From Escherichia coli (GTDB lineage Bacteria > Pseudomonadota > Gammaproteobacteria > Enterobacterales > Enterobacteriaceae): DNA of 64,000 bases. Shown piece by piece: positions 1,798 through 64,000 of the stretch. Position 1 is the first letter of the stretch. The number at the start of each line of letters is the position of its first letter. The DNA lies in NCBI RefSeq assembly GCF_050920415.1, contig NZ_CP169309.1, one strand, 5' to 3'. The translations under genes and the position numbers were made by a program. The notes below the pieces were generated by a model. The model saw only the letters and a program-made list of their open reading frames with translations, was not told the origin of the DNA and searched no databases.

Positions 1798-3120
1798 TTA
1801 TAACCGATGAAATTTTGCCAGTAAGGCCAGTGAAAATGTTGTCAGCAAAATGGTAATGACTGCGTAAATATACACTCCTGACCATTCCCAACTGTTTTTC
1901 ACCATAATAACTGGAAGCCCTGCCATTGCCGCGCCTAAATAACTAAACAAGCCCCTGAATCCAGTAATGGAACCTGCCGCATCTTTATGCGTAACATCAA
2001 GACACCCGACAGCGAATAACATATGCGGTCCATACAATGCAAACCCCATGATTGTAAACAGAATAGCCGTTAATGTGTAGGAGACGTCCTGCACCAGCGG
2101 TACGAGAACGATGCAAATACATAAAGCGATGGCAAAGATTAATCCTGTCATCCAGCGGTTACTTTTAAACATGAAATCGGACAAGTACCCCGCCAGTAAT
2201 CCCCCAGCAAGTCCACCTGCTTCAAACCAGGATATAATGGAGTTCGCTTTAATCAGGCTCCAGTTATGAACCTGAGAATAATAAATTTGTGGCCAGTCAT
2301 TGAGGATGGTGCGTGCAATATAGACCGACATATCCCCGAGGATAATGAGCCAAACTAATGGGTTGGTAAGAATATATTTAACGAATATTTGCCAAAAACT
2401 GAGATCAACCGGACTTGCTTTAACTTGTGCAAGTTCTGTCGGGTCGTTGCGCCACTTACCGACGTTAGGCAAACCGAGCGTGCCGGGACGATCTTTTATC
2501 GTAAACAAGGCAACAATCCCCATAATCAGTGAGATTACACCCGGAACATAAAAGCCCATCTTCCAGCTGCCACTAAAAGCAATAGCAAAGCTTGTCAGGA
2601 GAGGCGCAAGACTACCGCCAATATTATGCGCAGCTTCAACAACTGCCCACCAGCGTCCGCGTTCATTTTTCGAGAACCACGAGGCCATAATTTTTGCCAT
2701 TGGCGGAAAACTGGTACCCTGGAGAATAGCATTAAGGCTATACAGGATATAGAACGCAGCAACGCTGTCTGAAAAACCGAAAAGAATGTTAACAATACCG
2801 ACGCCAATAAGTACGGGGCCAGTCATCGCTCGTGGGTTAATTTTATCGACTAACATGCCACCTACAAACTTCATGGAGCCATAAAGAATGTAAAAGACCG
2901 ACGACATGATAGCGAAATCTTGTGCGGTTAATGACGTATCCGTTAACATCGCTGGCATGGCCGCAGAGAAATTCTTGCGGGTTAAGTAAAATACGGCATA
3001 AGAGATAAATACAGAGGTGATGATTTCAATGCGAAATTTTTTATAAGTATGATCAACTTCTTCTTTTGGTTTGACCACCGGTTGGTCGGCCTGGCTGAAA
3101 ATAAATTTTTTCAAACTCAT
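1798..3120 (-). CDS. MFS transporter, organophosphate:phosphate antiporter family (UhpT/UhpC/GlpT/PgtP-like), 440 aa
   Basis: 440-aa polytopic protein with 12 predicted hydrophobic segments and motifs typical of sugar-phosphate/phosphoglycerate antiporters; not present at this position in the K-12 arrangement (cirA is directly followed by yeiG there). Confidence 0.75.
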   Translation of the reverse strand: MSLKKFIFSQADQPVVKPKEEVDHTYKKFRIEIITSVFISYAVFYLTRKNFSAAMPAMLTDTSLTAQDFAIMSSVFYILYGSMKFVGGMLVDKINPRAMTGPVLIGVGIVNILFGFSDSVAAFYILYSLNAILQGTSFPPMAKIMASWFSKNERGRWWAVVEAAHNIGGSLAPLLTSFAIAFSGSWKMGFYVPGVISLIMGIVALFTIKDRPGTLGLPNVGKWRNDPTELAQVKASPVDLSFWQIFVKYILTNPLVWLIILGDMSVYIARTILNDWPQIYYSQVHNWSLIKANSIISWFEAGGLAGGLLAGYLSDFMFKSNRWMTGLIFAIALCICIVLVPLVQDVSYTLTAILFTIMGFALYGPHMLFAVGCLDVTHKDAAGSITGFRGLFSYLGAAMAGLPVIMVKNSWEWSGVYIYAVITILLTTFSLALLAKFHRL

Positions 3121-3152
3121 TGTGAGTTTCCTTTTCTGTGAACCTTATGGCG

Positions 3153-4040
3153 CTATAATTTTTCTTCTATAAAAAAGAGAAGCGACTCGAAACCATTAAA
3201 ATTAATCTGGTCAGCAATTTTTTCCCGGGTTTTAGATTTTGCTTTCCATGCCACGCCATTTCCGGCATGCAAAAGCATAGGAATATCATTGGCACCATCT
3301 CCACAGGCAATGATGTTTTCACGGCAGATAGCTAACTCTGTCGCTAAATTTATCAGGGTTTGCTTTTTCTTTTCTGCATTCATAATAGGTAAGGTAATTG
3401 TATCAGTTAACAGATCTTCCTTAATGCGCACAGAGTTAGAAAATGCAAAATCAAGTTGATATTTTTCCTTCAATCGCTCAGTAAAAATATCCAAACCTCC
3501 AGATATAATTGCCGTCTTGAATCCTTTTTCTTTTAGTATGGGAAGAATAGTTTCAAGACCTGGTGAAAGAGTCATCTGTTCACAAACTTGATGCAATATA
3601 TCTTTATGCGTTCCTTTAAGCATGGCAATTCGCCGGGTAAAACTGGTATCAAAATCGATTTTCCCTTCCATCGCTTCACGGGTCAGTGCGGTGATTTTTT
3701 CAGAGATGCCGAGTCTACGGGCTATTTCATCGACACCTTCTTCTTCAACAAAGGTGGAATCCATATCAAAGGCAATAATTCCCTGATCCGGCAAGACCCT
3801 GGGTTTACGGAAAAAATCAAACTGATGATTATCAGCACGGTGACGTAAACCAGCATAAAAAGCAGGGTTGGTAACATCATCTGGTAATACTAGCTTTAGA
3901 TACTCTTTATTTATTTGCCCACTGTAATTCGTTGTTAGCGAAAACACCGAGGGGGAAATCTTTAAATGTTGCAGATAATCTTCCAGACATTTTTGGGTGA
4001 TGTCGATGCCTGTTGGCGACAAGAAATAAATAATCGTCAT
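3153..4040 (-). CDS. HAD-superfamily phosphoserine phosphatase (SerB-like paralog), 295 aa
   Basis: HAD motifs in translation: motif I 'AFDMDSTF', 'ISGGLD', motif IV 'CGDGANDIPML'; overall collinear with E. coli SerB catalytic domain. Confidence 0.8.
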   Translation of the reverse strand: MTIIYFLSPTGIDITQKCLEDYLQHLKISPSVFSLTTNYSGQINKEYLKLVLPDDVTNPAFYAGLRHRADNHQFDFFRKPRVLPDQGIIAFDMDSTFVEEEGVDEIARRLGISEKITALTREAMEGKIDFDTSFTRRIAMLKGTHKDILHQVCEQMTLSPGLETILPILKEKGFKTAIISGGLDIFTERLKEKYQLDFAFSNSVRIKEDLLTDTITLPIMNAEKKKQTLINLATELAICRENIIACGDGANDIPMLLHAGNGVAWKAKSKTREKIADQINFNGFESLLFFIEEKL

Positions 4041-4134
4041 TTACCGCTCCTTTTTATCTGCAATGATTATAATAAGATTTCATAGAGGCTGATGTATCTG
4101 ACAATCACAGTTGTGAATGTTAAATAAAAGATAA

Positions 4135-4195
4135 AAAAGTACTTTTTTTGATACTTTGAAATAATAAGATACTAAAAGTACCATTTTTGATATCT
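4135..4195. promoter_or_regulatory. Pair of ~20-bp direct repeats (aaaagtacYNtttttgatatc) in AT-rich divergent promoter region of the island
   Basis: Direct repeats at 4135-4155 and 4174-4195 seen in sequence; located between divergently transcribed SerB-like and serine dehydratase genes. Confidence 0.3.
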
Positions 4196-4250
4196 TTACC
4201 AGGATATAAAGAATAACTATTTTTCAACGTTGAAGGAATCATTTAAAAAT

Positions 4251-5603
4251 ATGGAAAGCTGCATAGATATATTCAAGATAGTTATTGGTCCATCCAGTTC
4301 CCGCACAGTCGGGCCAATGCGTGCGGCTTATAATTTTGTGTCACAATTGAAACAGCAAGAAATGTTACCTTTGTTGCGGAAAATTGATGTCGAACTTTAT
4401 GGTGCGCTGTCATTAAGCCGCAAGTGCCATAATGTTGATGTGGCGATTTATCTCGGTTTGCAAGGACACTTACCTGACAGCGTTGACATTCGCATGGAAA
4501 TGTCCGCCATCAGGCGTGCAGAAACTGAGGCGACGCTGGAAGTTATGCCTGGTGTCAACGTCAGTGTATCCATTCTTTCTAATCTACAAGCGCATCCGGG
4601 GCACCCTTATGCGATGACATTTCGTGCCAGAGATGACTGGTTTACACTTTATGAAGAAACCTGGTTTTCTATCGGCGACGGTCAAGTGCTAAAAGCAGGA
4701 GAGGCGATTATTCCTCCATCAGTCACTCCACATCCTTTTGAATTCCAGAACGCAAACGAATTATTAAAACTTTGTCAGCAAAATGGATTATCTGTCGCGG
4801 CATTAATGATGAAAAACGAACTGCACTGCCAGACAGCAGCTTTTTTGCATGACGATCTTCATAAAAAATGGGAAGTAATGAAGGATGCGGTTTATCGCGG
4901 GATGCATACAGAAGGATTACTTCCAGGTCCGTTTCAGGTTAACCGTCGTGCCTGTGCTTTATATAAATCGTTGCAGTCAAAGGGGTTTTCCAATGACTTC
5001 CTGACTACGCTCAATTGGGTCAATACTTTTGCCATTGCGGTGAGCGAAGAAAATGCTGCGGGTGGACGTGTCGTGACAGCACCCACCAACGGCGCGAGCG
5101 GTATTATCCCGGCTGTACTGTGCTGGTATGATAAATTCATTCACGAGCTTGATACATACTCCGTTACCCGCTTTTTACTGACCGCTGGTGCCATCGCCAT
5201 TCTGTTCAAAAAAAATGCCTCTATTCTGGGTTCTGAAGTTGGATGTCAGGGGGAAATAGGTGTTGCCAGTTCAATGGCGGCAGCAGGATTAGCAGAACTT
5301 ATGGGCGGGTCAGTGGCTCAGGTACTTAGCGCGGCAGAAATTGCGATGGAGCATCATTTAGGTTTGACCTGTGATCCAGTTGGCGGGCAGGTACAAATTC
5401 CTTGTATTGAACGAAATGCTATTTCAGCTGTGAAAGCTATCAACGCAACGACGATGGCGTTGAGTCGCATAAGCGAGCCGTGCATTACACTGGATGAGAT
5501 AATTTCCGCGATGTATGAAACCGGAAAGGATATGAGCGCTAAATACCGTGAAACTTATCATGGCTGTCTGAGCAAATTGCAGCCAAGAAAAAAGGATGCG
5601 TAA
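4251..5603 (+). CDS. L-serine dehydratase (iron-sulfur, SdaA/SdaB/TdcG family) paralog
   Basis: Translation aligns along its length with E. coli SdaA (e.g. '[12 protein letters not shown]', '[18 protein letters not shown]', '[19 protein letters not shown]', '[21 protein letters not shown]', '[14 protein letters not shown]'). ATG at 4251 matches SdaA N-terminus; an alternative TTG start at 4230 is possible. Confidence 0.85.
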
Positions 5604-5994
5604 GATGAAATATAATACGATGAATAACAACGAAATTATTTTATCACTGTGCGCTCGCATTAAAGAAACGCGTATCTCATTATCATTGACCCAACAGCAG
5701 TTAGCCGAGCGTGCATTGGTGGGCATAGCAACGGTCAAGCGGATTGAAAAGGGGGGAAGTTTAAATCTTGATACTCTCATTTCTCTTCTGCGCGCGCTGA
5801 ATAAATTGCAAAATCTCGATGCCATATTGTTCGAAGCAGAAATGCGTAATTTCAACGAAAATAGTTCCAGCGGCGAAGGGGCAGGGCGACTACAGGTACG
5901 CCAGCAACTGACAGATTTAAACCAGAAGTCTCCAGCCCCGCACGCAGATGACCATAATTTTAGTACGGCGCTGGAAAATACCCTCTGCTGGTGA
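5596..5994 (+). CDS. Small helix-turn-helix (XRE/Cro-like) transcriptional regulator with non-conserved C-terminal tail
   Basis: N-terminal segment 'ISLSLTQQQLAERALVGIATVKRIEKG' is a classic HTH_XRE signature; start overlaps serine dehydratase stop; stop codon abuts yeiG stop back-to-back. Confidence 0.55.
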   Translation: MRKMKYNTMNNNEIILSLCARIKETRISLSLTQQQLAERALVGIATVKRIEKGGSLNLDTLISLLRALNKLQNLDAILFEAEMRNFNENSSSGEGAGRLQVRQQLTDLNQKSPAPHADDHNFSTALENTLCW

Positions 5995-10141: not shown

Positions 10142-10391
10142 GTATATTAACAATGCGATAGCTATGATTGCACCGTTTTAACGCTGTAACCTGCATGTAA
10201 CAGTGAATCATCACTTTCACCGAGGTAATAGCGTCATAACAACAATTAAAGCCTTTTCTGGAGCGTTACCGGGCATGGAAGAACGAATTTTAAAAAGTGA
10301 GCTTCGGCGTTCAGTAACACTTCATTAACTCTACTGCCCCGCCGAGCATTTATCTCAAGCACTACCCTGCATAAGAAAAACCGGAGATACC

Positions 10392-20205: not shown

Positions 20206-21114
20206 CTAATTCTGCTGTAAAAAGTGCAGAAACTGACTTAAAGCATAAGAAGGCGTTTCGTTATTACGCCAAAACACACCGACGCTGCCTTTCTGTTCAA
20301 TCTTTGGCAGGTTGAGGATCACCAGTTGCCCCTGGCTGGCATAACGTTGCGCCAGGCGTAATGACAAAATAGAGATCATATTGCTGCTTTGTAACAGGTT
20401 GGTACTGACGTTCATCGACGCCGACTCAATCGTGTTTTCTGGCAGCATCACGCCGTGGTCTACCAGCGCATTATCAATGCTGATGCGGATGGGGGTACCT
20501 GTCGGCCAGACTATCCACCGCCAGTTAGCAAGATCATTCCAGCTGAGGGTGGCGTATTTCGCCAGTGGATGCTCAGGACGGGCGACAAAGCATACCGGCT
20601 CGGTGTAGAGCACGCGATAATTCAGCGGCAGCTGCAACGCGCGACCGCCAATTCGCCCAACCACCACATCGATAGAACCTGCCAACAGATCTTGCAGCAA
20701 TGGGGTCATCACCTTCTCTTCGATATTCAGGTGTAGAGTTGGCATCTCCTTGAGCAAATGCAAAATCGCCTGGGATACGCAGTCAGTGGCGACGGGAGAA
20801 CAGCCAATTTTCAGACTGCCGACCAGTCCACCTTGTTTAAAGCGAGCCAGTTCATATTGCGATCTTTCCATGTCATTGATTAACCGTTGGGCATGTTGCA
20901 ATAACAATTTGCCGCCTTCGGTCGGACGAAGCCCGTTGCTGTGCCGCTCAAAAAGTGTGAGTCCGATCTCATCTTCCAGTTGTGACAACCATTTCGAAAG
21001 CGCGGGTTGGGTGATATTCATCATCCGTGCGACATGGGTCAGATTACCCTGTTCACCCAGCGCCACCAGCATTTGCAGGTGATGTAGTTTTAGTTTTTGC
21101 GCCCAGTTCGCCAT
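20206..21114 (-). CDS. mhbR: LysR-family transcriptional regulator, divergent from the gentisate operon
   Basis: N-terminal HTH ('LHHLQMLVALGEQGNLTHVARMMNITQPALSKWLSQLE') plus LysR substrate-binding domain; divergent arrangement as in Klebsiella mhbR. Start at in-frame ATG 21114 (longer ORF to 21162 possible). Confidence 0.75.
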   Translation of the reverse strand: MANWAQKLKLHHLQMLVALGEQGNLTHVARMMNITQPALSKWLSQLEDEIGLTLFERHSNGLRPTEGGKLLLQHAQRLINDMERSQYELARFKQGGLVGSLKIGCSPVATDCVSQAILHLLKEMPTLHLNIEEKVMTPLLQDLLAGSIDVVVGRIGGRALQLPLNYRVLYTEPVCFVARPEHPLAKYATLSWNDLANWRWIVWPTGTPIRISIDNALVDHGVMLPENTIESASMNVSTNLLQSSNMISILSLRLAQRYASQGQLVILNLPKIEQKGSVGVFWRNNETPSYALSQFLHFLQQN

Positions 21115-21240
21115 TTGCCATAACCTCCAGGTTATCTCTCTGCCCGAAATGCCATTGTACATCTCATCTCTTTAATCACATTATCGCAACATATACAAAA
21201 CAAAAGAAACATCTACCTTACCTGCACTGAGGCATTTACT

Positions 21241-22599
21241 ATGACTCAACGACGTGATTTACAAGCACTTATCGATGCCGCTCCGGTCGGCAAGATGCAG
21301 TGGCGCGTTATCATCTGCTGTTTTCTGGTGGTAATGCTCGATGGTTTTGACACCGCGGCTATCGGCTTTATCGCCCCTGATATTCGCACTCACTGGCAAC
21401 TCACCGCAGGCGATCTCGCCCCGCTTTTTGGTGCGGGTCTGCTGGGTTTAACGGCAGGCGCACTGCTTTGTGGCCCGTTGTCTGACCGCTTTGGCCGCAA
21501 ACGGGTGATAGAGCTATGCGTCTTTTTATTTGGCGCGTTAAGTCTCGCCTCTGCGTTTTCACCAGATCTGCAAACGCTGGTATTACTGCGTTTTCTCACC
21601 GGCCTGGGGCTTGGCGGGGCGATGCCGAACACCATCACCATGACCTCGGAATATCTGCCTGCCCGTCGCCGGGGCGCGCTGGTGACGCTGATGTTTTGCG
21701 GCTTTACGCTGGGTTCGGCGTTTGGCGGGATTGTCAGCGCACAGCTGGTGCCGGTGATTGGCTGGCACGGCATTCTGGTGTTGGGGGGCGTGTTACCGCT
21801 GATGCTGTTTGTCGCACTGCTGGTAGTTCTGCCGGAATCGCCACGCTGGCAGGTGCGCCGCCAGCTACCGCAGGCGGTGATTGCGAAAACCGTCAGCGCC
21901 ATCACCCGCGAGCGTTATGTCGATACCCACTTTTATCTCATTGAATCAGCCTCCGTTACAAAAGGCAGCATTCGTCAACTGTTTATGGGACGTCAGTTAC
22001 CCATTACGTTGATGCTTTGGGTGGTGTTCTTTATGAGCCTGCTGATTATTTACCTGCTCTCAAGCTGGATGCCAACGCTGTTGAACCATCGCGGCATAGA
22101 CCTGCAACACGCGTCCTGGGTCACCGCCGCGTTCCAGATTGGCGGTACGTTGGGCGCGCTGGCGCTGGGCGTGCTGATGGATAAGTTCAATCCTTTCCGC
22201 GTGCTGGCGCTGAGCTATGCCGTAGGCGCTGTATGCATCGTGATGATTGGCTTAAGCCAGGATGGATTATGGCTGATGGCGCTGGCGATTTTCGGCACCG
22301 GCATTGGCATTAGCGGATCTCAGGTGGGGTTGAACGCGTTGACCGCAACGCTCTACCCAACGCAAAGCCGCGCCACGGGCGTGAGCTGGTCAAACGCCGT
22401 AGGCCGCTGCGGCGCGATTGTCGGCTCGCTTTCTGGCGGCCTGATGATGGCGATGAATTTCTCTTTCGACACCCTGTTTTTCATTATCGCTGTGCCCGCG
22501 GCGATCAGTGCGGTGATGTTAAGCCTGCTGATCACCGTGGTTCGCCAGTCGACCTCTGTCCCTGACTCACTGCCTCGCGCAGGCGTTGTGAACGAATAA
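21241..22599 (+). CDS. mhbT: MFS aromatic-acid:H+ symporter (3-hydroxybenzoate transporter-like), 452 aa
   Basis: 12-TM MFS with 'GRKR' loop motif; first gene of catabolic operon. Confidence 0.75.
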
Positions 22600-22610
22600 G
22601 GAGCATCCTA

Positions 22611-23639
22611 ATGACTGATAACAATCAAAAAAGCCGCGAGCAATTTTATCAGCATATTTCCGGGCAAAACCTGACCCCGCTGTGGGAGTCACTGCACCAC
22701 CTGGTGCCGAAAACGCCCAACGCCAACTGTGCGCCAGCGTACTGGAATTATCAGGAGATCCGCCCGCTGCTGCTGGAGAGCGGCAGCCTGATTGGCGCGA
22801 AAGAAGCTGTGCGTCGTGTGCTGGTACTGGAAAACCCGGCGCTGCGCGGGCAGTCTTCCATTACCGCGACTTTATATGCCGGTTTGCAACTGATCATGCC
22901 GGGCGAAGTGGCACCGAGTCATCGTCATAACCAATCGGCGCTGCGTTTTATTGTTGAAGGCAAAGGGGCATTTACCGCCGTTGATGGCGAACGCACGCCA
23001 ATGAATGAGGGCGATTTTATCCTGACCCCACAATGGCGCTGGCACGATCATGGTAACCCTGGCGACGAACCGGTTATCTGGCTCGATGGACTGGATCTGC
23101 CATTAGTGAACACTCTGGGCTGCGGTTTTGCCGAAGATTACCCGGAAGAGCAACAACCGGTCACGCGTAAAGAGGGGGATTATCTGCCGCGTTATGCCGC
23201 CAATATGTTGCCGCTGCGCCATCAGACGGGGAACTCCTCACCGATCTTTAACTATCGTTATGACCGTAGCCGCGAAGTGCTGCACGATTTAACCCGCCTG
23301 GGCGATGCCGACGAGTGGGATGGCTACAAAATGCGCTACGTCAACCCGGTCACCGGCGGCTATCCGATGCCGTCGATGGGCGCTTTCCTGCAACTGCTAC
23401 CGAAAGGGTTCGCCTCCCGCGTGGCGCGTACCACTGACAGCACTATCTACCATGTGGTGGAAGGTAGCGGACAAGTCACCATCGGCAATGAAATCTTCAC
23501 CTTTAGTGCAAAAGATCTCTTTGTGGTGCCGACCTGGCACGGCGTGTCATTCCAGACTACGCAAGATACCGTTTTATTCAGTTTTTCGGACAGACCGGTA
23601 CAAGAAGCCCTGGGGCTGTTCCGCGAAGCGCGTTATTAA
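22611..23639 (+). CDS. mhbD: Gentisate 1,2-dioxygenase (bicupin), 342 aa
   Basis: Two cupin modules with His triad ('[14 protein letters not shown]', 'WRWHDHGN'); length typical of gentisate dioxygenases. Confidence 0.8.
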
Positions 23640-23654
23640 TTTGGGAGAGAGAAA

Positions 23655-24356
23655 ATGACTCAATATGTATTCGAACCACAAGCGCCCGTTACCGTACCGG
23701 TTGTTGGCAGTGATGAACAATTCCCCGTGCGCCGCGTTTACTGCGTCGGGCGTAACTATGCTGCCCACGCCCGCGAAATGGGCTTTGATCCGGATCGTGA
23801 ACCCCCCTTCTTCTTCTGCAAACCAGCAGATGCCGTTGTTCCGGTCGCCGCTGGCGAAACGCTGGCGCTGCCGTATCCGGCGCAGACCGATAACTATCAT
23901 TACGAAATTGAACTGGTGGTGGCGATTGGTAAAAAGGGCAGCGATATCCCACTGGAAAAGGCCCATGAATATGTCTGGGGTTATGCCACAGGCCTTGATA
24001 TGACTCGCCGTGACCGTCAAATGGAAATGCGTCAGATGGGCCGCCCGTGGGAAATCGGCAAAGCATTTGATCTCTCGGCCCCCATCGCACCGCTGCACAA
24101 AGCCAGCGAAACTGGCGGTATTGATAACGCACCTATCTGGTTACAGGTTAACGGTGAAGATCACCAGCGCAGCGATATTCGCCATCTCATCTGGTCGGTG
24201 AATGAAACCATCAGCTACCTGTCAGGCTTCTTTGAACTGCAACCGGGCGATCTAATCTTTACCGGTACGCCGGAAGGGGTTGGCCCAGTAGTCAAAGGTG
24301 ATGTGATCACGGGCAACGTCGAGGGCTTAACCCCTATCGCGGTGAAGATCGTCTGA
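23655..24356 (+). CDS. mhbH: Fumarylpyruvate hydrolase (FAH family), 233 aa
   Basis: FAH-fold motifs ('[13 protein letters not shown]', 'GTPEGVGPV'). Confidence 0.75.
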
Positions 24357-24361
24357 GGTGC

Positions 24362-25009
24362 ATGATGAAGCTGTACAGTTTTTTTAATAGTTCAGCATCG
24401 TACCGGGTACGCATTGCGCTGGCGCTGAAAGGCATTAATTACCAGACCGAAGGGGTGAATATCCGTATTGGTCGGCAAAATGAACTGGCCTATCGGCGGA
24501 TGAATCCTGTCGGGCTGGTGCCGACGCTGCTGACTGACGAGGGCGAGTCACTCGGTCAGTCGCTGGCGATTATTGACTGGCTGGATCGTCACTACCCGCA
24601 AGTTCCGCTGGTGCCGCAGGAAGAACCGGCCCGCAATAAGGTGCTGGGAATTGTCTATGCCATCGCTTGTGATATTCATCCATTGAATAACCTGCGCGTG
24701 CTGCGCTATCTGACCGAAGAGCTGAACGTCAGTGAAGAAGAGAAAAAACGCTGGTATGCGCACTGGATCCAGCAAGGGTTAAGCGCGGTGGAACAGCTAC
24801 TGCGCCAGAGCCAGTCGGGGCAATTTTGTGTGGGTGAGACGCCGACGCTGGCAGACTGCTGCCTTGTTCCGCAGTGGGCGAACGCGCTACGTATGAACTG
24901 CGATCTGAGAGGATATCCGCGCTGCAAAGCGGTGTACGACGCCTGCACACAACTGCCAGCGTTCATTGCCGCAGCGCCAGAAAATCAACAAGATAAAATT
25001 TCAGCCTGA
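24362..25009 (+). CDS. mhbI: Maleylpyruvate isomerase (zeta-class glutathione S-transferase), 215 aa
   Basis: GST N-terminal thioredoxin fold ('KLYSFFNSSASYRVRIAL') and GST-zeta-like C-terminus; sits between hydrolase and hydroxylase. Confidence 0.7.
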   Translation: MMKLYSFFNSSASYRVRIALALKGINYQTEGVNIRIGRQNELAYRRMNPVGLVPTLLTDEGESLGQSLAIIDWLDRHYPQVPLVPQEEPARNKVLGIVYAIACDIHPLNNLRVLRYLTEELNVSEEEKKRWYAHWIQQGLSAVEQLLRQSQSGQFCVGETPTLADCCLVPQWANALRMNCDLRGYPRCKAVYDACTQLPAFIAAAPENQQDKISA

Positions 25010-25023
25010 CCAGGAGAACCATA

Positions 25024-26217
25024 ATGACTAAAGTGACACGCGCAGTAATTGTGGGAGGCGGGATCGGCGGTGCGGCAACTGCGCTGTCACTGGCCCGCCA
25101 GGGGATCAAAGTGGTGCTGCTGGAAAAGGCGCATGAGATCGGTGAGATTGGCGCAGGTATCCAGTTGGGGCCAAATGCGTTTTCGGCGTTGGATAGTCTT
25201 GGTGTTGGCGAAATCGCCCGCCAACGTGCGGTATTCACCGATCACATCACCATGATGGACGCGGTGAACGCCGAAGAAGTGGTGCGTATTGAAACCGGGC
25301 AGGCCTTTCGTGACCATTTCGGCGGCCCTTACGCGGTGATCCACCGCGTTGATATTCATGCCTCGGTGTGGGAAGCGGTACTGACGCATCCGGACGTGGA
25401 ATATCACACCTCCACCAACGTCGTGGATATTCGCGAGACGGAAGACGATGTCACCGTGTTTGACGATCGCGGCAATAGCTGGAGCGGCGATATTCTGATT
25501 GGCTGTGACGGTGTGAAATCAGTGGTGCGCCAGAGCTTATTGGGCGATGCGCCGCGTGTCACCGGACATGTGGTCTACCGTGCGGTTATCGATTGTGCCG
25601 ATATGCCGGAAGATTTGCGCATTAACGCACCGGTACTGTGGGCGGGGCCGCATTGTCACCTGGTGCATTACCCTTTGCGCGGCGGCAAGCAGTATAACCT
25701 GGTGGTAACATTCCACAGCCGCCAGCAGGAAGAGTGGGGCGTGAAGGATGGCAGTAAAGAGGAAGTGCTCTCTTACTTTGAAGGGATTCACCCCCGTCCG
25801 CGCCAGATGTTGGATAAACCGACTTCATGGCGACGCTGGTCAACCGCTGACCGTGAACCGGTGGCGAAGTGGGGAACGAAGCGCATAACGCTTGTGGGCG
25901 ATGCGGCCCATCCGGTGGCGCAATATATGGCGCAGGGAGCCTGTATGGCGCTGGAAGATGCAGTAACGCTGGGTAAGGCGCTGGCGCAGTGTGAGGGTGA
26001 TGCGGCGCAAGCCTTTGCGCTGTATGAGTCGGTACGAATTCCGCGCACCGCGCGCATCGTCTGGTCGACCCGTGAAATGGGGCGGGTTTATCACGCCGCA
26101 GGGGTAGAACGTCAGGTACGTAACCTGCTGTGGAAAGGGAAATCGCAGGCAGAGTTTTATCGCGGCATGGAGTGGCTGTACGGCTGGAAAGAAGATAACT
26201 GTTTGCAACCACGCTGA
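25024..26217 (+). CDS. mhbM: 3-Hydroxybenzoate 6-hydroxylase (FAD-dependent aromatic monooxygenase, salicylate hydroxylase-like), 397 aa
   Basis: FAD motifs 'VIVGGGIGGAATAL' and 'GDAAHPVAQYMAQGACMALEDA'. Confidence 0.8.
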   Translation: MTKVTRAVIVGGGIGGAATALSLARQGIKVVLLEKAHEIGEIGAGIQLGPNAFSALDSLGVGEIARQRAVFTDHITMMDAVNAEEVVRIETGQAFRDHFGGPYAVIHRVDIHASVWEAVLTHPDVEYHTSTNVVDIRETEDDVTVFDDRGNSWSGDILIGCDGVKSVVRQSLLGDAPRVTGHVVYRAVIDCADMPEDLRINAPVLWAGPHCHLVHYPLRGGKQYNLVVTFHSRQQEEWGVKDGSKEEVLSYFEGIHPRPRQMLDKPTSWRRWSTADREPVAKWGTKRITLVGDAAHPVAQYMAQGACMALEDAVTLGKALAQCEGDAAQAFALYESVRIPRTARIVWSTREMGRVYHAAGVERQVRNLLWKGKSQAEFYRGMEWLYGWKEDNCLQPR

Positions 26218-27323: not shown

Positions 27324-27379
27324 GAAACCATAGTGATGTTTTTTGACAATGTGTTAGCTCTTTATCAATAGGCCGCACG

Positions 27380-27610
27380 GTTGTTTGGTGGCGTCAAAAT
27401 CGCCGAGGCGTTCCCTGAAGGCCGGGGCAGCCCACATGGATGTGGGCTGAGGGCGCGTTTTACAGGGATGTTACCTCGCGCCCGACCCGGTAGCCGTAAG
27501 GGATAAGCCGAGGGCACCGCGCAGCGGCGATTTTGTTCGCCAGAGCCCGGGGGTGCAGGGGGCGGCGGCGACTGGTCGCCCCCTGCGCGCTCCTTGCGCT
27601 AGTGATTATA
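27380..27610. other. GC-rich, highly structured intergenic element of unknown identity (multiple hairpins)
   Basis: Several strong inverted repeats (gcagcccacatggatgtgggctg; gggcgcg-N19-cgcgccc; gggggcggcggcgactggtcgccccc) read in sequence; no convincing ORF. Confidence 0.3.
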
Positions 27611-27695
27611 TGAAGCAATGTACATGACAGGAGCGCAACAGGATGAGAGACTGAAATATTCTCGTTATTTTCGGATCTGATGACGTTAATTAATT

Positions 27696-27779
27696 TTAAA
27701 ATATCATCTTAAATACGCCAGTCACCACCAGTAGTCCAATCAGGAAAATAATCAATACAGCCCAGAGTATAATTTTCAT
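27696..27779 (-). CDS. yohP: Small single-TM membrane protein, 27 aa (MKIILWAVLIIFLIGLLVVTGVFKMIF)
   Basis: Not in supplied ORF track (below length cutoff); translated by hand. Sequence and position between dusC and mdtQ match the known E. coli small protein YohP as I recall it. Confidence 0.65.
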   Translation of the reverse strand: MKIILWAVLIIFLIGLLVVTGVFKMIF

Positions 27780-28002
27780 TGGCGTTCCTTTATTTGTGAG
27801 TGTCGAATAAGTATAGGAAAAAACGAAGCCCTTTGCCGTTACTCATAAGTGATTAAGATAAATCGGAGAATATCATTCACTTACTGTATATTTTTCTGAA
27901 TATGTCGTTTTATTGCCACTGATGTATTGCCACGCGAAACTAAAAAATATATTGCATCACACGGTAATCTCCGCGCACCTTTTCTTACCTGACTATTCCT
28001 CC

Positions 28003-29439
28003 ATGAATCGTGATTCCTTTTACCCAGCCATCGCCTGTTTTCCTCTGTTACTGATGCTGGCCGGGTGTGCGCCTATGCATGAAACCCGCCAGGCGTTAAG
28101 CCAGCAAACACCCGCTGCGCAAGTTGACACCGCATTACCTACGGCGCTGAAAAATGGTTGGCCAGACAGCCAATGGTGGCTGGAGTATCACGATAATCAA
28201 CTCACTTCATTAATTAACTATGCACTGCAGAATGCACCGGATATGCAGGTGGCTGAACAGCGCATTCAGCTGGCTGAAGCCCAGGCGAAGGCAGTTGCCA
28301 CTCAGGATGGCCCTCAGATCGATTTTTCTGCGGATATGGAGCGGCAAAAAATGTCGGCAGAAGGGCTAATGGGGCCGTTTGCTCTGAACGATCCTGCCGC
28401 AGGTACGACCGGTCCGTGGTACACCAATGGTACTTTTGGCTTAACGGCGGGCTGGCATCTTGATATTTGGGGAAAGAATCGGGCGGAGGTTACTGCTCGC
28501 CTGGGTACAGTTAAAGCACGGGCGGCGGAACGCGAGCAAACCCGCCAATTGCTGGCTGGCAGCGTTGCCCGCCTTTACTGGGAGTGGCAAACCCAGGCAG
28601 CGTTAAACACTGTTTTGCAGCAAATCGAAAAAGAGCAGAACACCATTATCGCGACCGATCGCCAGCTATACCAGAACGGGATTACTTCTTCAGTTGAAGG
28701 TGTGGAAACCGATATTAATGCCAGCAAGACCCGGCAGCAGCTCAACGATGTCGTGGGAAAAATGAAAATTATTGAGGCACGGTTAAGCGCACTTACAAAT
28801 CACCAGATAAAGTCATTGAAGCTTAAACCGGTTGAGTTGCCGAAAGTGGCAAGTCAGCTTCCTGATGAACTGGGGTATTCATTGCTGGCACGGCGGGCAG
28901 ATTTGCAGGCAGCGCATTGGTACGTTGAGTCATCGTTAAGCACCATTGATGCGGCAAAAGCGGCCTTTTATCCTGACATCAACCTGATGGCCTTCCTGCA
29001 ACAGGATGCGTTGCACTTAAGCGATTTGTTCCGTCATTCCGCGCAGCAAATGGGCGTTACGGCAGGCCTGACGCTACCCATTTTCGATAGTGGTCGTCTT
29101 AACGCCAACCTCGATATTGCAAAAGCCGAAAGCAACTTGTCTATCGCCAGCTACAACAAAGCGGTGGTTGAAGCGGTGAATGACGTGGCGCGGGCAGCCA
29201 GTCAGGTTCAGACGCTGGCGGAGAAAAACCAGCATCAGGCGCAAATTGAGCGCGATGCCTTGCGTGTGGTAGGTCTTGCGCAGGCCCGCTTTAACGCGGG
29301 TATCATTGCTGGTTCCCGCGTCAGCGAAGCCAGGATCCCGGCGCTGCGTGAGCGGGCCAATGGCCTGTTATTGTAAGGGCAGTGGCTGGATGCCTCCATT
29401 CAACTCACTGGTGCGTTGGGCGGGGGTTACAAACGCTGA
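28003..29439 (+). pseudogene. mdtQ: Outer-membrane efflux channel (OprM/NodT family lipoprotein); reading frame interrupted by in-frame TAA at 29374-29376
   Basis: Lipoprotein signal 'LLLMLAGC'; OMF family body. After the TAA stop the same frame continues 'GQWLDASIQLTGALGGGYKR*', which carries the family-typical ALGGG(Y/W) C-terminal motif, so the stop is premature. Confidence 0.6.
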
Positions 29440-31129: not shown

Positions 31130-31717
31130 ATGAGCCATGTCTGGGGACTGTTTTCCCATCCCGATCGTGAAATGCAGGTGATTAATCGCGAAAACGAAAC
31201 GATTTCTCATCACTACACCCACCACGTTTTGCTGATGGCGGCAATTCCGGTGATTTGCGCCTTCATTGGCACCACACAAATTGGCTGGAATTTTGGCGAT
31301 GGCACCATCCTGAAGTTATCCTGGTTTACCGGACTGGCGCTGGCTGTCTTGTTTTATGGCGTTATGCTGGCTGGGGTCGCGGTGATGGGGCGGGTCATTT
31401 GGTGGATGGCACGCAATTACCCGCAGCGTCCGTCGCTTGCGCACTGTATGGTCTTCGCGGGCTACGTTGCGACGCCGCTGTTTTTAAGCGGTCTGGTGGC
31501 GCTTTACCCGCTGGTCTGGTTGTGTGCGCTGGTCGGCACGGTGGCGCTGTTTTACACCGGCTACCTGCTTTATCTCGGTATTCCAAGCTTCCTGAATATC
31601 AACAAAGAGGAAGGCCTTAGCTTCTCCAGTTCGACGCTGGCGATTGGCGTGCTGGTACTGGAAGTGCTGCTCGCCCTTACCGTTATACTATGGGGTTACG
31701 GTTATCGTTTGTTCTAG
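31130..31717 (+). CDS. yohC: Yip1-family inner membrane protein, ~195 aa
   Basis: Polytopic; start chosen at MSHVWGLF. Confidence 0.75.
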   Translation: MSHVWGLFSHPDREMQVINRENETISHHYTHHVLLMAAIPVICAFIGTTQIGWNFGDGTILKLSWFTGLALAVLFYGVMLAGVAVMGRVIWWMARNYPQRPSLAHCMVFAGYVATPLFLSGLVALYPLVWLCALVGTVALFYTGYLLYLGIPSFLNINKEEGLSFSSSTLAIGVLVLEVLLALTVILWGYGYRLF

Positions 31718-31890
31718 AAAGTTCTTTTGTGTTGCATTGCTGGCGTAAATGTCAGCAATGCAGCATTTCCTCACGATTCTCCTTTGACGATCGCACTTTT
31801 TGCTCGTTATGATGGCGTCGCTAGCCTCAGTAAATCCTTACTCCGGCGGTGCGCAACCCGTGCGCGTGAACCACTATCTGAATGCTCATC

Positions 31891-32825: not shown

Positions 32826-33108
32826 GTAGGCAGGATAAGGCGTTTACGCCGCATCAGGCATTCGGAGCACAATGCCTGATGCGATGCTTGCGCATCTTAT
32901 CAGGCCTACAAACGTGACGCGTCCGTAGGCAGGATAAGGCGTTCACGCCGCATCCGGCATTCGGAGCACAATGCCTGATGCGATGCTTGCGCATCTTATC
33001 AGGCCTACAAACGTGACGCGTCCGTAGGCAGGATAAGGCGTTCACGCCGCATCCGGCATTCGGTGCACGATGCCTGATGCGATGCTTCTATTTGCATCAG
33101 GCATCCAG
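32826..33108. repeat. BIME: tandem array of REP units (three near-identical ~98-bp repeats) between pbpG and dld
   Basis: Unit 'ggcaggataaggcgttcacgccgcatccggcattcggagcacaatgcctgatgcgatgcttgcgcatcttatcaggcctacaaacgtgacgcgtccgta' recurs at ~32829, ~32927 and ~33025. Confidence 0.75.
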
Positions 33109-34830: not shown

Positions 34831-35025
34831 TTTCCACTCCTTGTGGTGGCGAAAAAATATCACAAACTAGCATAGCGCCTTGTATGACAATTCAGCGAGT
34901 GAATATTTTGAAAATTCAGACAATAAACTGAGCATTCTTTTTCTCTCTCCATCATGCTTATGGCAAACTACGGTTTTTGCACCATTTTCGCTGCCTCGTC
35001 GGGCAACAGAGGAAGAATAATCCAT

Positions 35026-40476: not shown

Positions 40477-41208
40477 ATGAAGATGTTGCGCGATCCGCTG
40501 TTCTGGCTCATTGCTCTGTTTGTGGCACTGATTTTCTGGCTGCCTTACAGCCAGCCGCTGTTTTCTGCCTTGTTCCCACAACTGCCACGCCCCGTTTATC
40601 AGCAAGAAAGTTTTGCTGCTCTGGCACTGGCTCATTTCTGGCTGGTGGGAATTTCGAGTTTGTTTGCGGTGATCATTGGCACAGGTGCCGGAATTATTGT
40701 TACTCGCCCGTGGGGCGCGGAATTTCGCCCACTGGTGGAAACTATTGCCGCCGTTGGGCAGACTTTTCCGCCCGTTGCGGTGCTGGCGATTGCCGTTCCG
40801 GTGATTGGGTTTGGTCTGCAACCGGCGATTATCGCCTTGATCCTGTACGGTGTGCTGCCCGTCCTGCAGGCGACACTTGCCGGGCTGGGAGCGATTGATG
40901 TCAGCGTGACAGAAGTTGCGAAAGGTATGGGAATGAGCCGTGGTCAGCAACTGCGTAAGGTCGAGCTACCGCTGGCGGCTCCGGTGATTCTGGCGGGCGT
41001 GCGAACTTCGGTGATTATCAACATTGGTACGGCGACGATCGCCTCAACGGTAGGGGCCAGCACGCTGGGTACGCCCATCATCATCGGGCTTAGCGGATTT
41101 AATACCGCGTATGTGATCCAGGGGGCGTTACTGGTGGCACTGGCGGCGATCATCGCAGACCGCCTGTTTGAAAGGCTGGTGCAGGCGCTTAGCCAGCACG
41201 CAAAATAA
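40477..41208 (+). CDS. yehW: Osmoprotectant ABC transporter permease, 243 aa
   Basis: Polytopic permease closing the operon. Confidence 0.85.
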
Positions 41209-41296
41209 AGGTATAACCTGCGAGCATGACGCCACCAATTCCGCCTAACGCCATAAAAAGGAACAGGGCGATGACCCCAATTTTAGCTATGCGCAT
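41189..41296 (-). CDS. yohO: Small membrane protein, 35 aa ([35 protein letters not shown])
   Basis: Not in ORF track; hand-translated. GGAG Shine-Dalgarno-like motif upstream; overlaps 3' end of yehW on opposite strand; matches the known small protein YohO as I recall it. Confidence 0.6.
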
Positions 41297-41355
41297 AATG
41301 CACTCCTTATGTTAACGAAAGGATTGTACAGTAAAGCGCATTTGTTAACGAATCA

Positions 41356-42087: not shown

Positions 42088-42308
42088 CGTCTCACCCTTG
42101 CTCGCGAGGTCCCAGTTTAACTTTAGACGCAGTTTTGCGAACCAGGTAGTTTTGCCCGTTTTTTGTTCATCTATAGGGTGATTTTATTTTTGCCAGGCGA
42201 TTTTGAGTGATCGTACTCACGAATTCTCATTTTTCTGCAAGAGTTCAAAGAAAGTTAAAGGCAGGCAATGTATGTTACGCGTTTTAAAGGGAAGTGTGGT
42301 TTGCGGGT

Positions 42309-43994
42309 ATGTACGATTTTAATCTGGTGTTGCTGCTGCTTCAGCAGATGTGCGTTTTTTTAGTCATTGCGTGGTTAATGAGTAAAACGCCATTATTCAT
42401 ACCGTTAATGCAGGTCACGGTTCGTCTGCCGCATAAATTTCTCTGCTACATCGTCTTTTCCATCTTCTGCATCATGGGCACCTGGTTTGGGCTGCACATT
42501 GACGATTCTATTGCCAATACCCGTGCGATTGGTGCGGTAATGGGCGGCTTACTCGGCGGTCCGGTCGTCGGTGGGCTGGTTGGTCTGACCGGCGGGTTAC
42601 ATCGATATTCGATGGGGGGCATGACCGCGCTAAGTTGCATGATCTCGACCATCGTTGAAGGATTGCTCGGCGGCCTGGTACACAGCATCCTGATCCGTCG
42701 CGGGCGTACTGATAAAGTCTTTAATCCCATTACCGCGGGTGCCGTCACGTTCGTCGCTGAAATGGTGCAAATGCTGATCATCCTGGCGATCGCCCGACCT
42801 TATGAAGATGCGGTGCGTCTGGTGAGTAATATTGCTGCGCCAATGATGGTCACCAATACCGTCGGCGCGGCGCTGTTTATGCGTATATTGCTCGATAAAC
42901 GCGCGATGTTTGAAAAATACACTTCGGCTTTTTCTGCTACTGCGCTGAAAGTGGCTGCCTCGACGGAAGGCATTTTGCGCCAGGGGTTTAACGAAGTGAA
43001 CAGCATGAAAGTGGCACAGGTGCTGTATCAGGAGCTGGATATTGGTGCAGTCGCGATTACCGATCGAGAGAAATTGCTGGCTTTTACCGGAATTGGTGAC
43101 GACCACCATTTACCCGGCAAACCGATTTCTTCGACTTACACCTTAAAAGCGATTGAAACCGGTGAAGTGGTCTACGCCGATGGCAACGAAGTGCCTTACC
43201 GTTGCTCGTTGCATCCGCAATGCAAACTGGGTTCGACGCTGGTGATTCCGTTGCGTGGTGAAAATCAGCGGGTGATGGGCACCATCAAATTGTATGAAGC
43301 CAAAAACCGTTTGTTCAGTTCAATCAATCGCACGCTGGGCGAGGGGATTGCGCAACTGCTTTCGGCGCAGATCCTCGCCGGGCAATATGAGCGGCAAAAA
43401 GCGATGCTCACCCAGTCAGAGATCAAACTGCTTCACGCCCAGGTGAACCCCCATTTTTTGTTTAATGCGCTTAACACCATTAAAGCGGTGATCCGCCGCG
43501 ACAGCGAACAGGCCAGCCAGCTGGTGCAGTATCTTTCCACTTTTTTCCGTAAAAACTTAAAGCGGCCTTCGGAGTTTGTTACTCTCGCCGACGAAATTGA
43601 ACATGTGAATGCTTATCTGCAAATTGAAAAGGCGCGCTTCCAGTCGCGGTTGCAGGTCAACATTGCTATTCCGCAAGAATTATCCCAGCAGCAATTGCCC
43701 GCGTTTACCCTGCAACCGATAGTGGAAAACGCTATTAAACATGGGACATCACAACTGCTCGATACAGGGCGAGTGGAAATCAGCGCCCGACGTGAGGGGC
43801 AACATTTGATGCTGGAGATCGAAGACAATGCCGGTTTGTATCAACCGGTAACCAATGCCAGTGGGCTGGGGATGAATCTGGTGGATAAGCGTTTACGTGA
43901 ACGGTTTGGCGATGACTATGGGATAAGCGTCGCCTGTGAGCCTGATAGTTACACCCGAATAACGTTACGACTACCATGGAGGGACGAGGCATGA
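42309..43994 (+). CDS. btsS: LytS-type sensor histidine kinase (pyruvate-sensing BtsS/YehU), ~561 aa
   Basis: 5TMR-LYT membrane domain, GAF, His_kinase ('[17 protein letters not shown]') and HATPase domains. Confidence 0.85.
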
Positions 43995-52467: not shown

Positions 52468-52551
52468 TAAAAAAACCTGCTGGTGAGGCAGGTTCTTTTA
52501 TTTACTACTTTCAGGCCTAACACCACGGCCTGTGCAACATCGTGTTCCAAC
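52468..52551 (-). ncRNA. Candidate cis-encoded/divergent antitoxin sRNA (OrzO-like) with sigma70-like promoter and intrinsic terminator
   Basis: Minus-strand -35 TTGCAA (52586-52581), 17-bp spacer, -10 TATAAT (52563-52558); minus-strand terminator stem aacctgc/gcaggtt (52474-52494) followed by a T-run on that strand. The 5' part of the predicted RNA is complementary to a 20-nt segment (52698-52717) in the leader of the downstream toxin ORF (19/20 match to plus-strand 52532-52551). Ends are estimates. Confidence 0.4.
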
Positions 52552-52789
52552 GAACGAATTATAACCATCGGTGGACCCCGTTGCAATTAAGATAATGAGA
52601 TTTATAATCCTGACTGTTGGGACGTTGCGCCGGATCGAACCCATTTCAAGTCCTGGCTACCGGACGGGTGGTGCCGCAGGTAGTGCCCTGATCCGGAGTG
52701 CAACATCGTGGTCCAACATACGTAAACCAGTATCGACAGGCAGTGTAAGGGTAAGATGCTGGTGTTGCGCTCCTTAATAAGGAGAGCGG

Positions 52790-52879
52790 ATGGACACGCT
52801 GACACAAAAGTTAACCGTGCTCATTGCCGTACTGGAGTTATTAGTGGCTCTGTTACGGCTGATTGATTTGTTGAAGTAA
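52790..52879 (+). CDS. zorO: Type I toxin-like small hydrophobic peptide, 29 aa (MDTLTQKLTVLIAVLELLVALLRLIDLLK), ZorO-like
   Basis: Not in ORF track; hand-translated. GGAGAG Shine-Dalgarno 4 nt upstream; single amphipathic/hydrophobic helix ending in Lys, like TisB/ZorO class toxins; long structured 5' leader with plus-strand -10 TATAAT at 52613-52618. Gene symbol assigned from memory of the O157:H7 zor-orz locus, not from a search. Confidence 0.55.
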   Translation: MDTLTQKLTVLIAVLELLVALLRLIDLLK

Positions 52880-52932
52880 CGGGCAAATTGAAACGCATCT
52901 AAGGGGGAATACCGTCTCCCTCTTTAATAAAG

Positions 52933-53136
52933 CTATACTCGTCATAATTCAAGTTGCATGTGCTGCGACTGCGTGTTATTCGGCCCATCCATGGACCTCA
53001 CCCCTTACGGGGCCGCTGCAAGTAGCGTTCAAATCCGCTCCATGCGGATTTGTCGTTCACCCCAGTCACTTACTTTAGTAAGCTCCTGGGGATTCACTCG
53101 CTTATCGCCTTCCTGCAACTTGAATTATTTAGAGTA
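52933..53136. repeat. ERIC (enterobacterial repetitive intergenic consensus) element, long variant
   Basis: Contains reverse complement of the ERIC core 'gtgaatccccaggagcttactaaagtaagtgactgggg' flanked by the terminal inverted repeats 'aagttgcatgtgctgcg ... ttcctgcaacttgaattatttagagt'. Confidence 0.65.
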
Positions 53137-57167: not shown

Positions 57168-57176
57168 GCTCTTTCC

Positions 57177-60971: not shown

Positions 60972-60983
60972 TGCTAAATCCTT

Positions 60984-63900: not shown

Positions 63901-64000
63901 GCATTGGCAATATCCGGGCGTTCAGGGAGCAGTAACGCGGCAAAAGGTTGCCGTGCTGGGGATAGCGTCGGAATAGCAGTAAGCACTTTATCCACACAGC
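60984..64000 (-). CDS. Third giant DUF4132 paralog, 3' portion (N-terminus lies beyond window end)
   Basis: ORF open to the window edge; near-identical blocks to the 1264-aa paralog ('FTAWTEAGAPAKENWAFTSLGILGNDDTARKLTPLIRAWPGESQHKRA', C-terminal 'LDDITASELINDIESLFD'). Confidence 0.75.
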   Translation of the reverse strand, partial: CVDKVLTAIPTLSPARQPFAALLLPERPDIANAMALHYADQNVPAITWLRLVVTDDIALTTAEKYDFPPLYRDFRAYLAMLLANNGGRGVSRILTEFVEEHSDNPTYLFERISETEDLVKWLWKTNHPDAIQILILGVNGKKKHLEYLSKACQKHPAAAIAAYATLLAIHEDKEWRKALVKLITVTPELVRDVIPWVNAKAAGILSECRPQSVAEEYEYATADMLPELLVAPPWAINKKKNVIPVFDLPVLPIPSVTDITPGITELISHTDISRFSEIAKYQASQQTLFTDLPLIEKESWETSFIPFTPEQQILWQLGFNEWLHCEDDLHEKKHIPQSAVDALLRFDFPALKAEFAKYHNNANKSWNLSALCYLPGQQAISFLNQIIIEERYSGEKEILAVFGSTAIPAFMTCLQRDHQRLWIFTLFIGASELALPMAQRLQKKMAYKDAVNWLANNPRHAAAGLLPLALGKPCQNREYARQALRLLVKLNQRETIEKIAQGYNQPDVLAALATLFDSDPLEEYPAKIAPLPGFYQFTLWRRPRLKSNNLPLPDDAMRHLGTMLSFPRDITAYAGLEIIKETFTRESLADFGWDLYTAWTEAGAPAKENWAFTSLGILGNDDTARKLTPLIRAWPGESQHKRAVSGLDVLADIGSDVALMLLNGIAKKIKFVALQEHAREKINIVAENRGLTMAELEDRLAPDLGLDSSGSLILDFGPRQFTVVFDETLKPVVRDANGKVLKDLPKPNQSDDKTLATDAVNLFKQLKKDVRAIASQQIDRLEQAMCQRRRWTAEQFRLFLVEHPLVRHLTRRLLWGVYTEENTLIACFRVAEDSTYSDAQDELFTLPAGNIGIPHVLEIPPESAAAFRQIYADYELLPPFQQLDRGSYRLADNERNTHDLTRWQGQLCQAGRIVGLERRGWQRLEESGSVYAMRKSTPYGDLELETEHFSLIYGETGYGDLLPVESVKITSPDDRYGKQPLLTFSMLDDITASELINDIESLFD

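Follow-up and report, generated by a model that had tools for sequence, protein, structure and literature searches.

Two short genes for known single-helix inner-membrane proteins of Escherichia coli, yohP (27696..27779, minus strand) and yohO (41189..41296, minus strand), are almost certainly genuine and expressed in the window analyzed here, a stretch of 64,000 nucleotides of an E. coli chromosome that differs from NZ_CP169399.1 (1793144-1857143) at 10 of its 64,000 positions. Both have their usual chromosomal neighbors, in the orders mdtQ-yohP-dusC and mlrA-yohO-yehW, and their expression in this particular strain is inferred from the identity of the proteins with those of K-12. A third small hydrophobic gene, the presumptive toxin gene zor (52790..52879, plus strand) of a zor/orz type I toxin-antitoxin locus, was recovered from the same window; it is, like yohP and yohO, previously known, and no new gene is described in this work. 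The original prediction had proposed two short hydrophobic open reading frames (ORFs) with credible starts, recognized them as yohP (27 aa) and yohO (35 aa), and placed the second antisense to the 3' end of yehW, and all of these statements proved accurate.

The yohP gene opens with an ATG and encodes 27 amino acids (MKIILWAVLIIFLIGLLVVTGVFKMIF); yohO, likewise with an ATG start, encodes 35. The public annotation used for comparison comprised the RefSeq (PGAP) record NZ_CP169399.1 and the curated K-12 record, and in the former each gene coincides exactly with an annotated coding sequence, WP_000691708.1 ('small membrane protein YohP') at 27696..27779 and WP_001216963.1 ('protein YohO') at 41189..41296, the K-12 counterparts being b4679 and b4542. 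The exact 27-aa and 35-aa sequences carry the names YohP and YohO in public protein collections. Both exceed the cut-offs of curated NCBIfam equivalog models over their full length, YohP with 67.3 bits against NF011345 (cut-off 58; residues 1-27 of 27) and YohO with 80.1 bits against NF010225 (cut-off 57; residues 1-35 of 35). Relative to K-12, both proteins (YohP, known in Salmonella as STnc1330, and YohO, of UPF0387) are 100% identical, the Shine-Dalgarno (SD) sequence, start codon and mdtQ and dusC neighbors of yohP are the same, and so are the 59-nt distance of yohO from mlrA and its 20-nt overlap with yehW. A Pfam match of YohO to B12D (E = 0.39) was discarded as meaningless, and YohO is thus without a Pfam family.

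How much weight the open frames carry by themselves was gauged across the whole window, where 2977 start-stop combinations of 10-59 aa occur, so that ORF length alone says nothing. A joint filter, requiring an SD duplex of -5 kcal/mol or below with the 3' tail of 16S rRNA, a maximal 17-residue Kyte-Doolittle value of at least 2.0 and a length of at least 15 aa, leaves six ORFs, where 60 shuffles that preserve dinucleotides leave 2.55 +/- 1.66 each. These six are yohP, yohO, in-frame internal starts in yohD, an MFS transporter gene and mglC, and the ORF at 52790..52879 (plus strand), which is unannotated. Extremes like those of yohP never arose in the 60 shuffles, and extremes like those of yohO arose 0.05 times per 64 kb; these sequence features alone are suggestive, not conclusive, for coding. 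The abundance of short frames, and a filter that passes six where shuffles give two or three, lend some initial substance to the view that the two frames are open by chance in AT-rich DNA between genes and do not encode protein, but that view is extremely improbable, having been refuted by the pattern of conservation and the detection of both proteins. What is decisive for coding is the combination of cross-genus substitutions of the coding type, family-model scores above the cut-offs, and published detection of the proteins, of which YohO has been detected in K-12 by top-down mass spectrometry (PMC12529367), with Ribo-seq coverage that follows its reading frame (bioRxiv 10.1101/2020.05.05.079178), and YohP as a tagged product, as discussed below.

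Conservation in related genomes, the test that had been named for these ORFs at the outset, was followed in 80 loci, each from a different species and together covering more than 20 genera of enterobacteria, all anchored on Dld with 10-kb flanks, since dld sits midway between yohP and yohO. The yohP gene is intact in 37 of the 80 loci, with 27 aa in 36 of these 37 and residues 10-27 invariant; its variable columns are distributed 11/1/24 over the three codon positions and pN/pS relative to the window sequence is 0.073. The yohO gene is present in 55 of the 80 loci, at 34-37 aa and with an ATG start in every one, its variable columns being distributed 21/14/31 and pN/pS being 0.247. Conservation falls off in the flanks of both genes. 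These substitution patterns show that both peptides are under purifying selection. When the 81 small intergenic ORFs between 23 and 45 kb of the window were screened against the loci outside Escherichia, yohP (86% identity in 37 loci) and yohO (72% in 50 loci) stood out clearly, and the other 79 carried no coding signature.

The wider suggestion that small-ORF content in the window is under-called, and that further genes below 60 aa may exist, was borne out in part. It applies to the 60-aa ORF track of the first-stage analysis, a cut-off that hides real genes, and fails for RefSeq, which annotates both yohP and yohO; beyond these two there is one case, the ZorO ORF with its Orz RNA (52469..52879), and nothing else among the 79 ORFs screened. 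The curated K-12 annotation of the syntenic region likewise lists no coding sequence shorter than 60 aa besides yohP and yohO. The systematic small-ORF scan with SD scoring that had been called for recovered yohP, yohO and the unannotated zor ORF, and an inexpensive SD and hydrophobicity filter combined with an Rfam scan recovered all three small hydrophobic genes of the window. Small ORFs with good SD sites at 31688..31774 (minus), 34867..34935 (minus), 42272..42322 (plus) and 10275..10328 (plus) were set aside, as they lack conservation of the coding type.

Other conserved or repeated sequences in the same region have small frames of their own. Immediately upstream of pbpG, 31806..31886 (plus strand) matches the Rfam Peptidase-S11 motif RF03039 at 72.8 bits (gathering score 34.8), and next to this motif a 12-codon ORF (31749..31787, plus strand) is kept in 34 loci without an SD site, a conservation that probably reflects the regulatory region. 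Between pbpG and dld, tandem REP/BIME-type elements (32829..32906 and 32928..33005, plus strand) score as Rfam naRNA4 with 76.9 and 81.8 bits (gathering score 59.5), and each holds identical spurious ORFs of 18 and 12 aa with SD-like sites, an example of how repeats can produce false small-ORF candidates.

The yohP start codon is preceded by the SD sequence AAGGAA (27785..27790, minus strand), which lies at a canonical spacing of 5 nt (27784..27780) from the ATG and forms a duplex of -5.6 kcal/mol with the 3' tail of 16S rRNA. Further upstream, the heptamer CTATACT (27810..27816, minus strand) is a candidate -10 element of the sigma-S type, which would imply a 5' UTR of about 24 nt; a related CTATAtT occurs at the same distance from yohP in the cross-genus consensus, with column conservation below 80%. 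Read in the direction of transcription (27816..27810), CTATACT fits the RpoS-dependent production of YohP in Salmonella (PMC5437024). A generic sigma-70 scan returned nothing at the CTATACT site, and around yohP and yohO alike generic sigma-70 promoter and intrinsic-terminator scans yielded no excess over shuffled sequences and no usefully placed hit. As these scans gave nothing convincing, the promoters and transcript boundaries proposed here for the two genes are drawn from hexamers and the literature.

Expression of YohP is documented in two hosts. In Salmonella, the yohP transcript was first catalogued as the small RNA STnc1330, and 3xFLAG-tagged YohP was subsequently found to be made in an RpoS- and growth-phase-dependent manner (PMC5437024). 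In K-12, SPA-tagged chromosomal YohP rises in stationary phase, in minimal medium and under oxygen limitation (PMC12719787). The protein is a single hydrophobic helix with flanking lysines K2 and K24, a glycine at G21, and the motif IGLLVVTGV that contains G15. K-12 YohP undergoes post-translational, signal recognition particle (SRP)-dependent membrane insertion, adopts mainly an N-out/C-in orientation and dimerizes through G15, and its mRNA localizes to the membrane independently of translation (PMC7549839). YohP production reduces membrane potential and fluidity, sets off a stringent response and condenses the nucleoid; the depolarization is described as non-lethal, and deletion of yohP lowers stress survival (PMC12719787). 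The authors of that study name the resulting protective state 'metabolic silencing' on the basis of over-production and deletion phenotypes in K-12 (PMC12719787), and the phenotypes ascribed to YohP rest largely on plasmid over-production.

The history of STnc1330 as a 'non-coding' small RNA in the first Salmonella annotation (PMC5437024), together with the shortness of the transcript and the translation-independent membrane localization of the mRNA (PMC7549839), raises the alternative that the yohP transcript is mainly a regulatory RNA and its peptide incidental. Such a role is very unlikely given the extreme constraint on the amino-acid sequence, with a single variable second-position column in 27 codons, and given that tagged YohP accumulates and that its phenotypes require features of the peptide, G15 among them. 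Folding of the transcript region gave an unexceptional energy (z = -1.8), which makes no case for a structured RNA, and an Rfam scan found no family at the gathering threshold on yohP and no adjoining antisense or divergent small RNA.

The preferred account of yohP is accordingly that of a stress-induced membrane peptide. A short monocistronic mRNA would be made from a promoter with a sigma-S-type -10 element, the element being proposed from sequence and the RpoS dependence carried over from Salmonella, and induction would be expected, as in K-12, in stationary phase, minimal medium and oxygen limitation. As shown in K-12, the protein is too short to be targeted co-translationally, and SRP with FtsY therefore recognizes it once translation is complete and passes it to SecYEG or YidC. 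In the membrane, it would sit mainly N-out/C-in as a dimer through G15, and raised levels would be predicted to lower membrane potential and fluidity, with ppGpp accumulation and nucleoid condensation.

A different emphasis would make YohP an orphan depolarizer resembling a type I toxin, that is, a growth brake that has no RNA antitoxin, and not a protein that modulates one specific partner. The parallel with TisB is drawn by the authors of the K-12 study, who point to a small, lysine-flanked single helix, lowered membrane potential and nucleoid condensation (PMC12719787), and the ZorO toxin encoded in the same window falls in the same size class with the same effects (PMC9860968). YohP and the membrane-acting type I toxins, TisB-IstR1 among them, are alike in being 27-29 aa long, with one helix, amphipathic or hydrophobic, that is flanked by charges; depolarization on over-production, as in toxins of the TisB-IstR1 type, applies to ZorO, and to YohP by analogy. 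The differences are that YohP has no RNA antitoxin, that its 5' UTR of about 24 nt, as proposed above, is not the long, structured and processed leader typical of type I toxins, that its control would be through sigma-S and not the SOS response, and that its depolarization is non-lethal, with deletion lowering stress survival. This orphan-toxin reading is possible though doubtful, and it departs from the preferred account, that of a stress-induced membrane peptide, more in framing than in substance.

The highly conserved YohP peptide is encoded by a gene of uneven occurrence. Both mdtQ and dusC lie within 1 kb of yohP in 19 of the 37 loci that hold it. In 18 of the 80 loci (L005, L011, L012, L014, L017, L019, L022, L023, L030, L032, L036, L037, L040, L044, L047, L052, L053 and L056), among them the type strain of E. 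albertii and several Citrobacter, dusC is present without an adjoining yohP, and mdtQ is also present in 15 of these 18; absence from an otherwise intact mdtQ-dusC or dusC neighborhood indicates that some lineages can do without yohP. A further 13 loci have yohP at a distance from both dusC and mdtQ. Taken together, the 18 absences and the 13 atypical positions suggest a gene that is patchily distributed or mobile.

The surroundings of yohP have features of their own. The spacer that separates dusC from the 3' end of yohP contains, at about 27354..27620, GC-rich palindromic repeat DNA, in which, for example, 27555..27564 pairs with 27577..27586 over 10 nt at 100% complementarity. A 601-nt query spanning 27400..28000, which holds this palindromic repeat, has a median of 3 matching places per E. 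coli genome and is covered to at least 80% in only 3404 of 5425 E. coli genomes. On the other side, mdtQ (27913..29376 / 28003..29373, plus strand) is flagged by PGAP as a pseudogene ('missing C-terminus') and is a pseudogene in K-12 too; the region is here nonetheless spanned by an uninterrupted frame of 487 codons. The yohP gene itself is no different from that of K-12, and the strain differs by a 6-kb catabolic island beyond dusC (20206..26217). This island is a 3-hydroxybenzoate/gentisate cluster, missing from K-12, inserted between yohJ and dusC, and comprises genes for a LysR regulator, mhbT, gtdA, a fumarylacetoacetate hydrolase family protein, maiA and a 3-hydroxybenzoate 6-monooxygenase.

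The yohO gene has a strong SD sequence, AAGGAG (41303..41308, minus strand), at a canonical spacing of 6 nt upstream of the ATG, with a duplex of -8.8 kcal/mol and more than 80% conservation of its AGGAG in the cross-genus consensus. The gene is preceded by mlrA on the same strand in 48 of the 55 loci that carry yohO, and the 59-nt mlrA-yohO spacer of the window holds a candidate -10-like hexamer, TACAAT (41323..41328, minus strand), for which the cross-genus consensus is TATAAT, so that yohO may have a promoter of its own. The intrinsic-terminator scan found no terminator-like site between mlrA and yohO, and read-through from mlrA is therefore also possible. The mRNA could thus arise by either route and would be translated from the strong SD site. 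YohO is a single-helix membrane protein with a conserved glycine-rich small-xxx-small run, (G/S)18-G19-I-(G/S)21-G22...G27; it would be expected to insert as a single helix, whose glycine face may pack against a second YohO helix or against a helix of a larger membrane protein.

The 3' end of yohO meets that of yehW (40477..41208, plus strand) in a convergent arrangement, the two coding sequences sharing 20 nt at 41189..41208. An overlap of 17-26 nt was found in all 54 loci that hold both genes, and across genera its length scales with that of the protein, being 17, 20, 23 and 26 nt for YohO of 34, 35, 36 and 37 aa, respectively, which means that the yehW stop is fixed relative to the yohO frame and that the yohO stop is the one that moves. 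In six loci, yohO and yehW stay together in the absence of mlrA, and an apparent class of 13 loci with yehW and no yohO dissolved on inspection into partial paralogues at 35-43% identity that are not orthologues; on these two grounds, yohO travels with yehW. The pair has also been listed among the convergent excludons derived from RNA-seq, detected in half or more of the E. coli samples (PMC12288877).

Since yohO always overlaps the last gene of the osmF-yehYXW operon, the glycine-betaine transporter OsmF-YehYXW may be guessed to be the most likely partner of YohO. The fuller proposal, that YohO is an accessory or regulatory subunit of this transporter, or that yohO is wired to the operon by the obligatory antisense overlap, is unlikely; the overlap in 54 of 54 loci, the six mlrA-less loci, the reported excludon and the conserved packing face of the helix would be compatible with it. 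The linkage may reflect only that overlapping genes cannot separate without truncating one of them. That yohO acts chiefly through its transcript, as an excludon that makes expression of osmF-yehYXW and mlrA-yohO mutually exclusive with the peptide secondary, would draw on the same conserved coding overlap and RNA-seq detection, and is quite unlikely, given that purifying selection acts on the entire YohO peptide, some 28 codons of which lie outside the overlap, and that the protein itself is detected (PMC12529367); transcript and peptide roles are, in any case, not mutually exclusive. A search of the literature found no functional study of YohO.

The third small hydrophobic gene of the window, zor, was found by the SD and hydrophobicity scan in the yehL-yehK spacer, which measures 780 bp here and 306 bp in K-12 and lies outside the 10-kb flanks of the Dld-anchored loci, making that sample uninformative on ZorO. 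The 29-aa product (MDTLTQKLTVLIAVLELLVALLRLIDLLK) of 52790..52879 (plus strand) is preceded by the SD sequence AAGGAG (52779..52784), with a duplex of -9.3 kcal/mol, and is identical to Swiss-Prot ZORO_ECO57, to the UniRef entry 'Small toxic protein ZorO', and to copy 2 (ZorO) of the O157:H7 reference locus (L004). The residues D2, K7, E16, R23, D26 and K29, named as the charged residues of ZorO (PMC9860968), are all present in this identical peptide. The zor/orz system is described in PMC3919570, and its published anatomy, with -35 and -10 elements (PMC11264685) and a 174-nt UTR (PMC5397157), has its counterpart in the window, where the zor promoter consists of a -35 TTGCAA (52581..52586) and a -10 TATAAT (52603..52608) on the plus strand. 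From the promoter spacing, transcription would start at G52616 to give a 174-nt 5' UTR (52616..52789, plus strand), within which lie the conserved GGAGTG (52695..52700) and the Orz pairing site (52698..52717).

Divergent from zor, a putative OrzP-type antitoxin small RNA of about 83 nt (52469..52551, minus strand) ends in a 3' terminator hairpin and U-run, and the promoter spacing would place its start at 52551; its -10 is TATAAT (52563..52558), and its -35 is the palindromic TTGCAA (52581..52586) held in common with zor. The Rfam model RF02083 (OrzO-P) matches 52469..52544 (minus strand) over its full length (1-76) with 98.9 bits (gathering score 60). If the Orz start at 52551 is assumed, the first 20 nt of the RNA pair with the zor UTR as 6(1)13, that is, 19 paired nt with one mismatch, and the duplex has an energy of -40.3 kcal/mol compared with -23.2 +/- 2.8 in shuffles. 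The functional threshold has been put at 15 or more continuous nt, or 17 or more with one internal mismatch (PMC3919570), and the predicted pairing here lies above it. Peptide toxicity and RNA rescue were demonstrated for the zorO-orzO pair of O157:H7 (PMC3919570).

Judged by sequence, the zor/orz pair of the window would be a hybrid toxin-antitoxin allele. It shares with the ZorO-OrzO/ZorP-OrzP locus (RF02083) of O157:H7 EDL933 the ZorO peptide, the promoters, the 174-nt UTR, the GGAGTG and the divergent small RNA, and differs in being a single copy where O157:H7 has a tandem pair. The nucleotide sequence of the locus, the pairing (V1) region included, is of the zorP/orzP type, with 96.3% identity to that copy compared with 87.5% for zorO/orzO, yet the peptide carries T3, as in ZorO, instead of the S3 of ZorP. 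Of 5426 complete E. coli genomes, 3393 (about 63%) cover at least 80% of the zor/orz region. RefSeq annotation of zor or orz was found neither under the 16 full-length matches sampled nor in NZ_CP169399.1 or the O157:H7 locus; NCBIfam has no ZorO model, which is probably why PGAP omits zor.

In K-12 MG1655, a deletion of about 488 bp (window 52636..53123), bounded by TT(C/G)AA microhomology, has removed the zor UTR, the coding sequence and an ERIC element, leaving an intact orz (locus L003 9410..9485; Rfam 99.9 bits). The element in the window is an ERIC/IRU-type repeat at about 52950..53125, just downstream of zor and inside the stretch deleted from K-12, and its core (53054..53097, minus strand) is presumably that of ERIC, since 41 of its 44 positions agree with the ERIC core sequence. 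The orphan orz of K-12 looked notable at first, but orz-only loci have already been published for more than 30% of E. coli genomes (PMC11264685).

Two further differences from K-12 lie toward the ends of the window. Between cirA and yeiG, a four-gene insert (1798..5994) encodes an MFS transporter, a phosphoserine phosphatase annotated as SerB, an L-serine ammonia-lyase and an HTH protein. At the other end, 53517..64000 (minus strand) carries three tandem large DUF4132 genes, one of them also with a WGR domain; in the K-12 counterpart, yehH is a pseudogene and yehI alone is intact.
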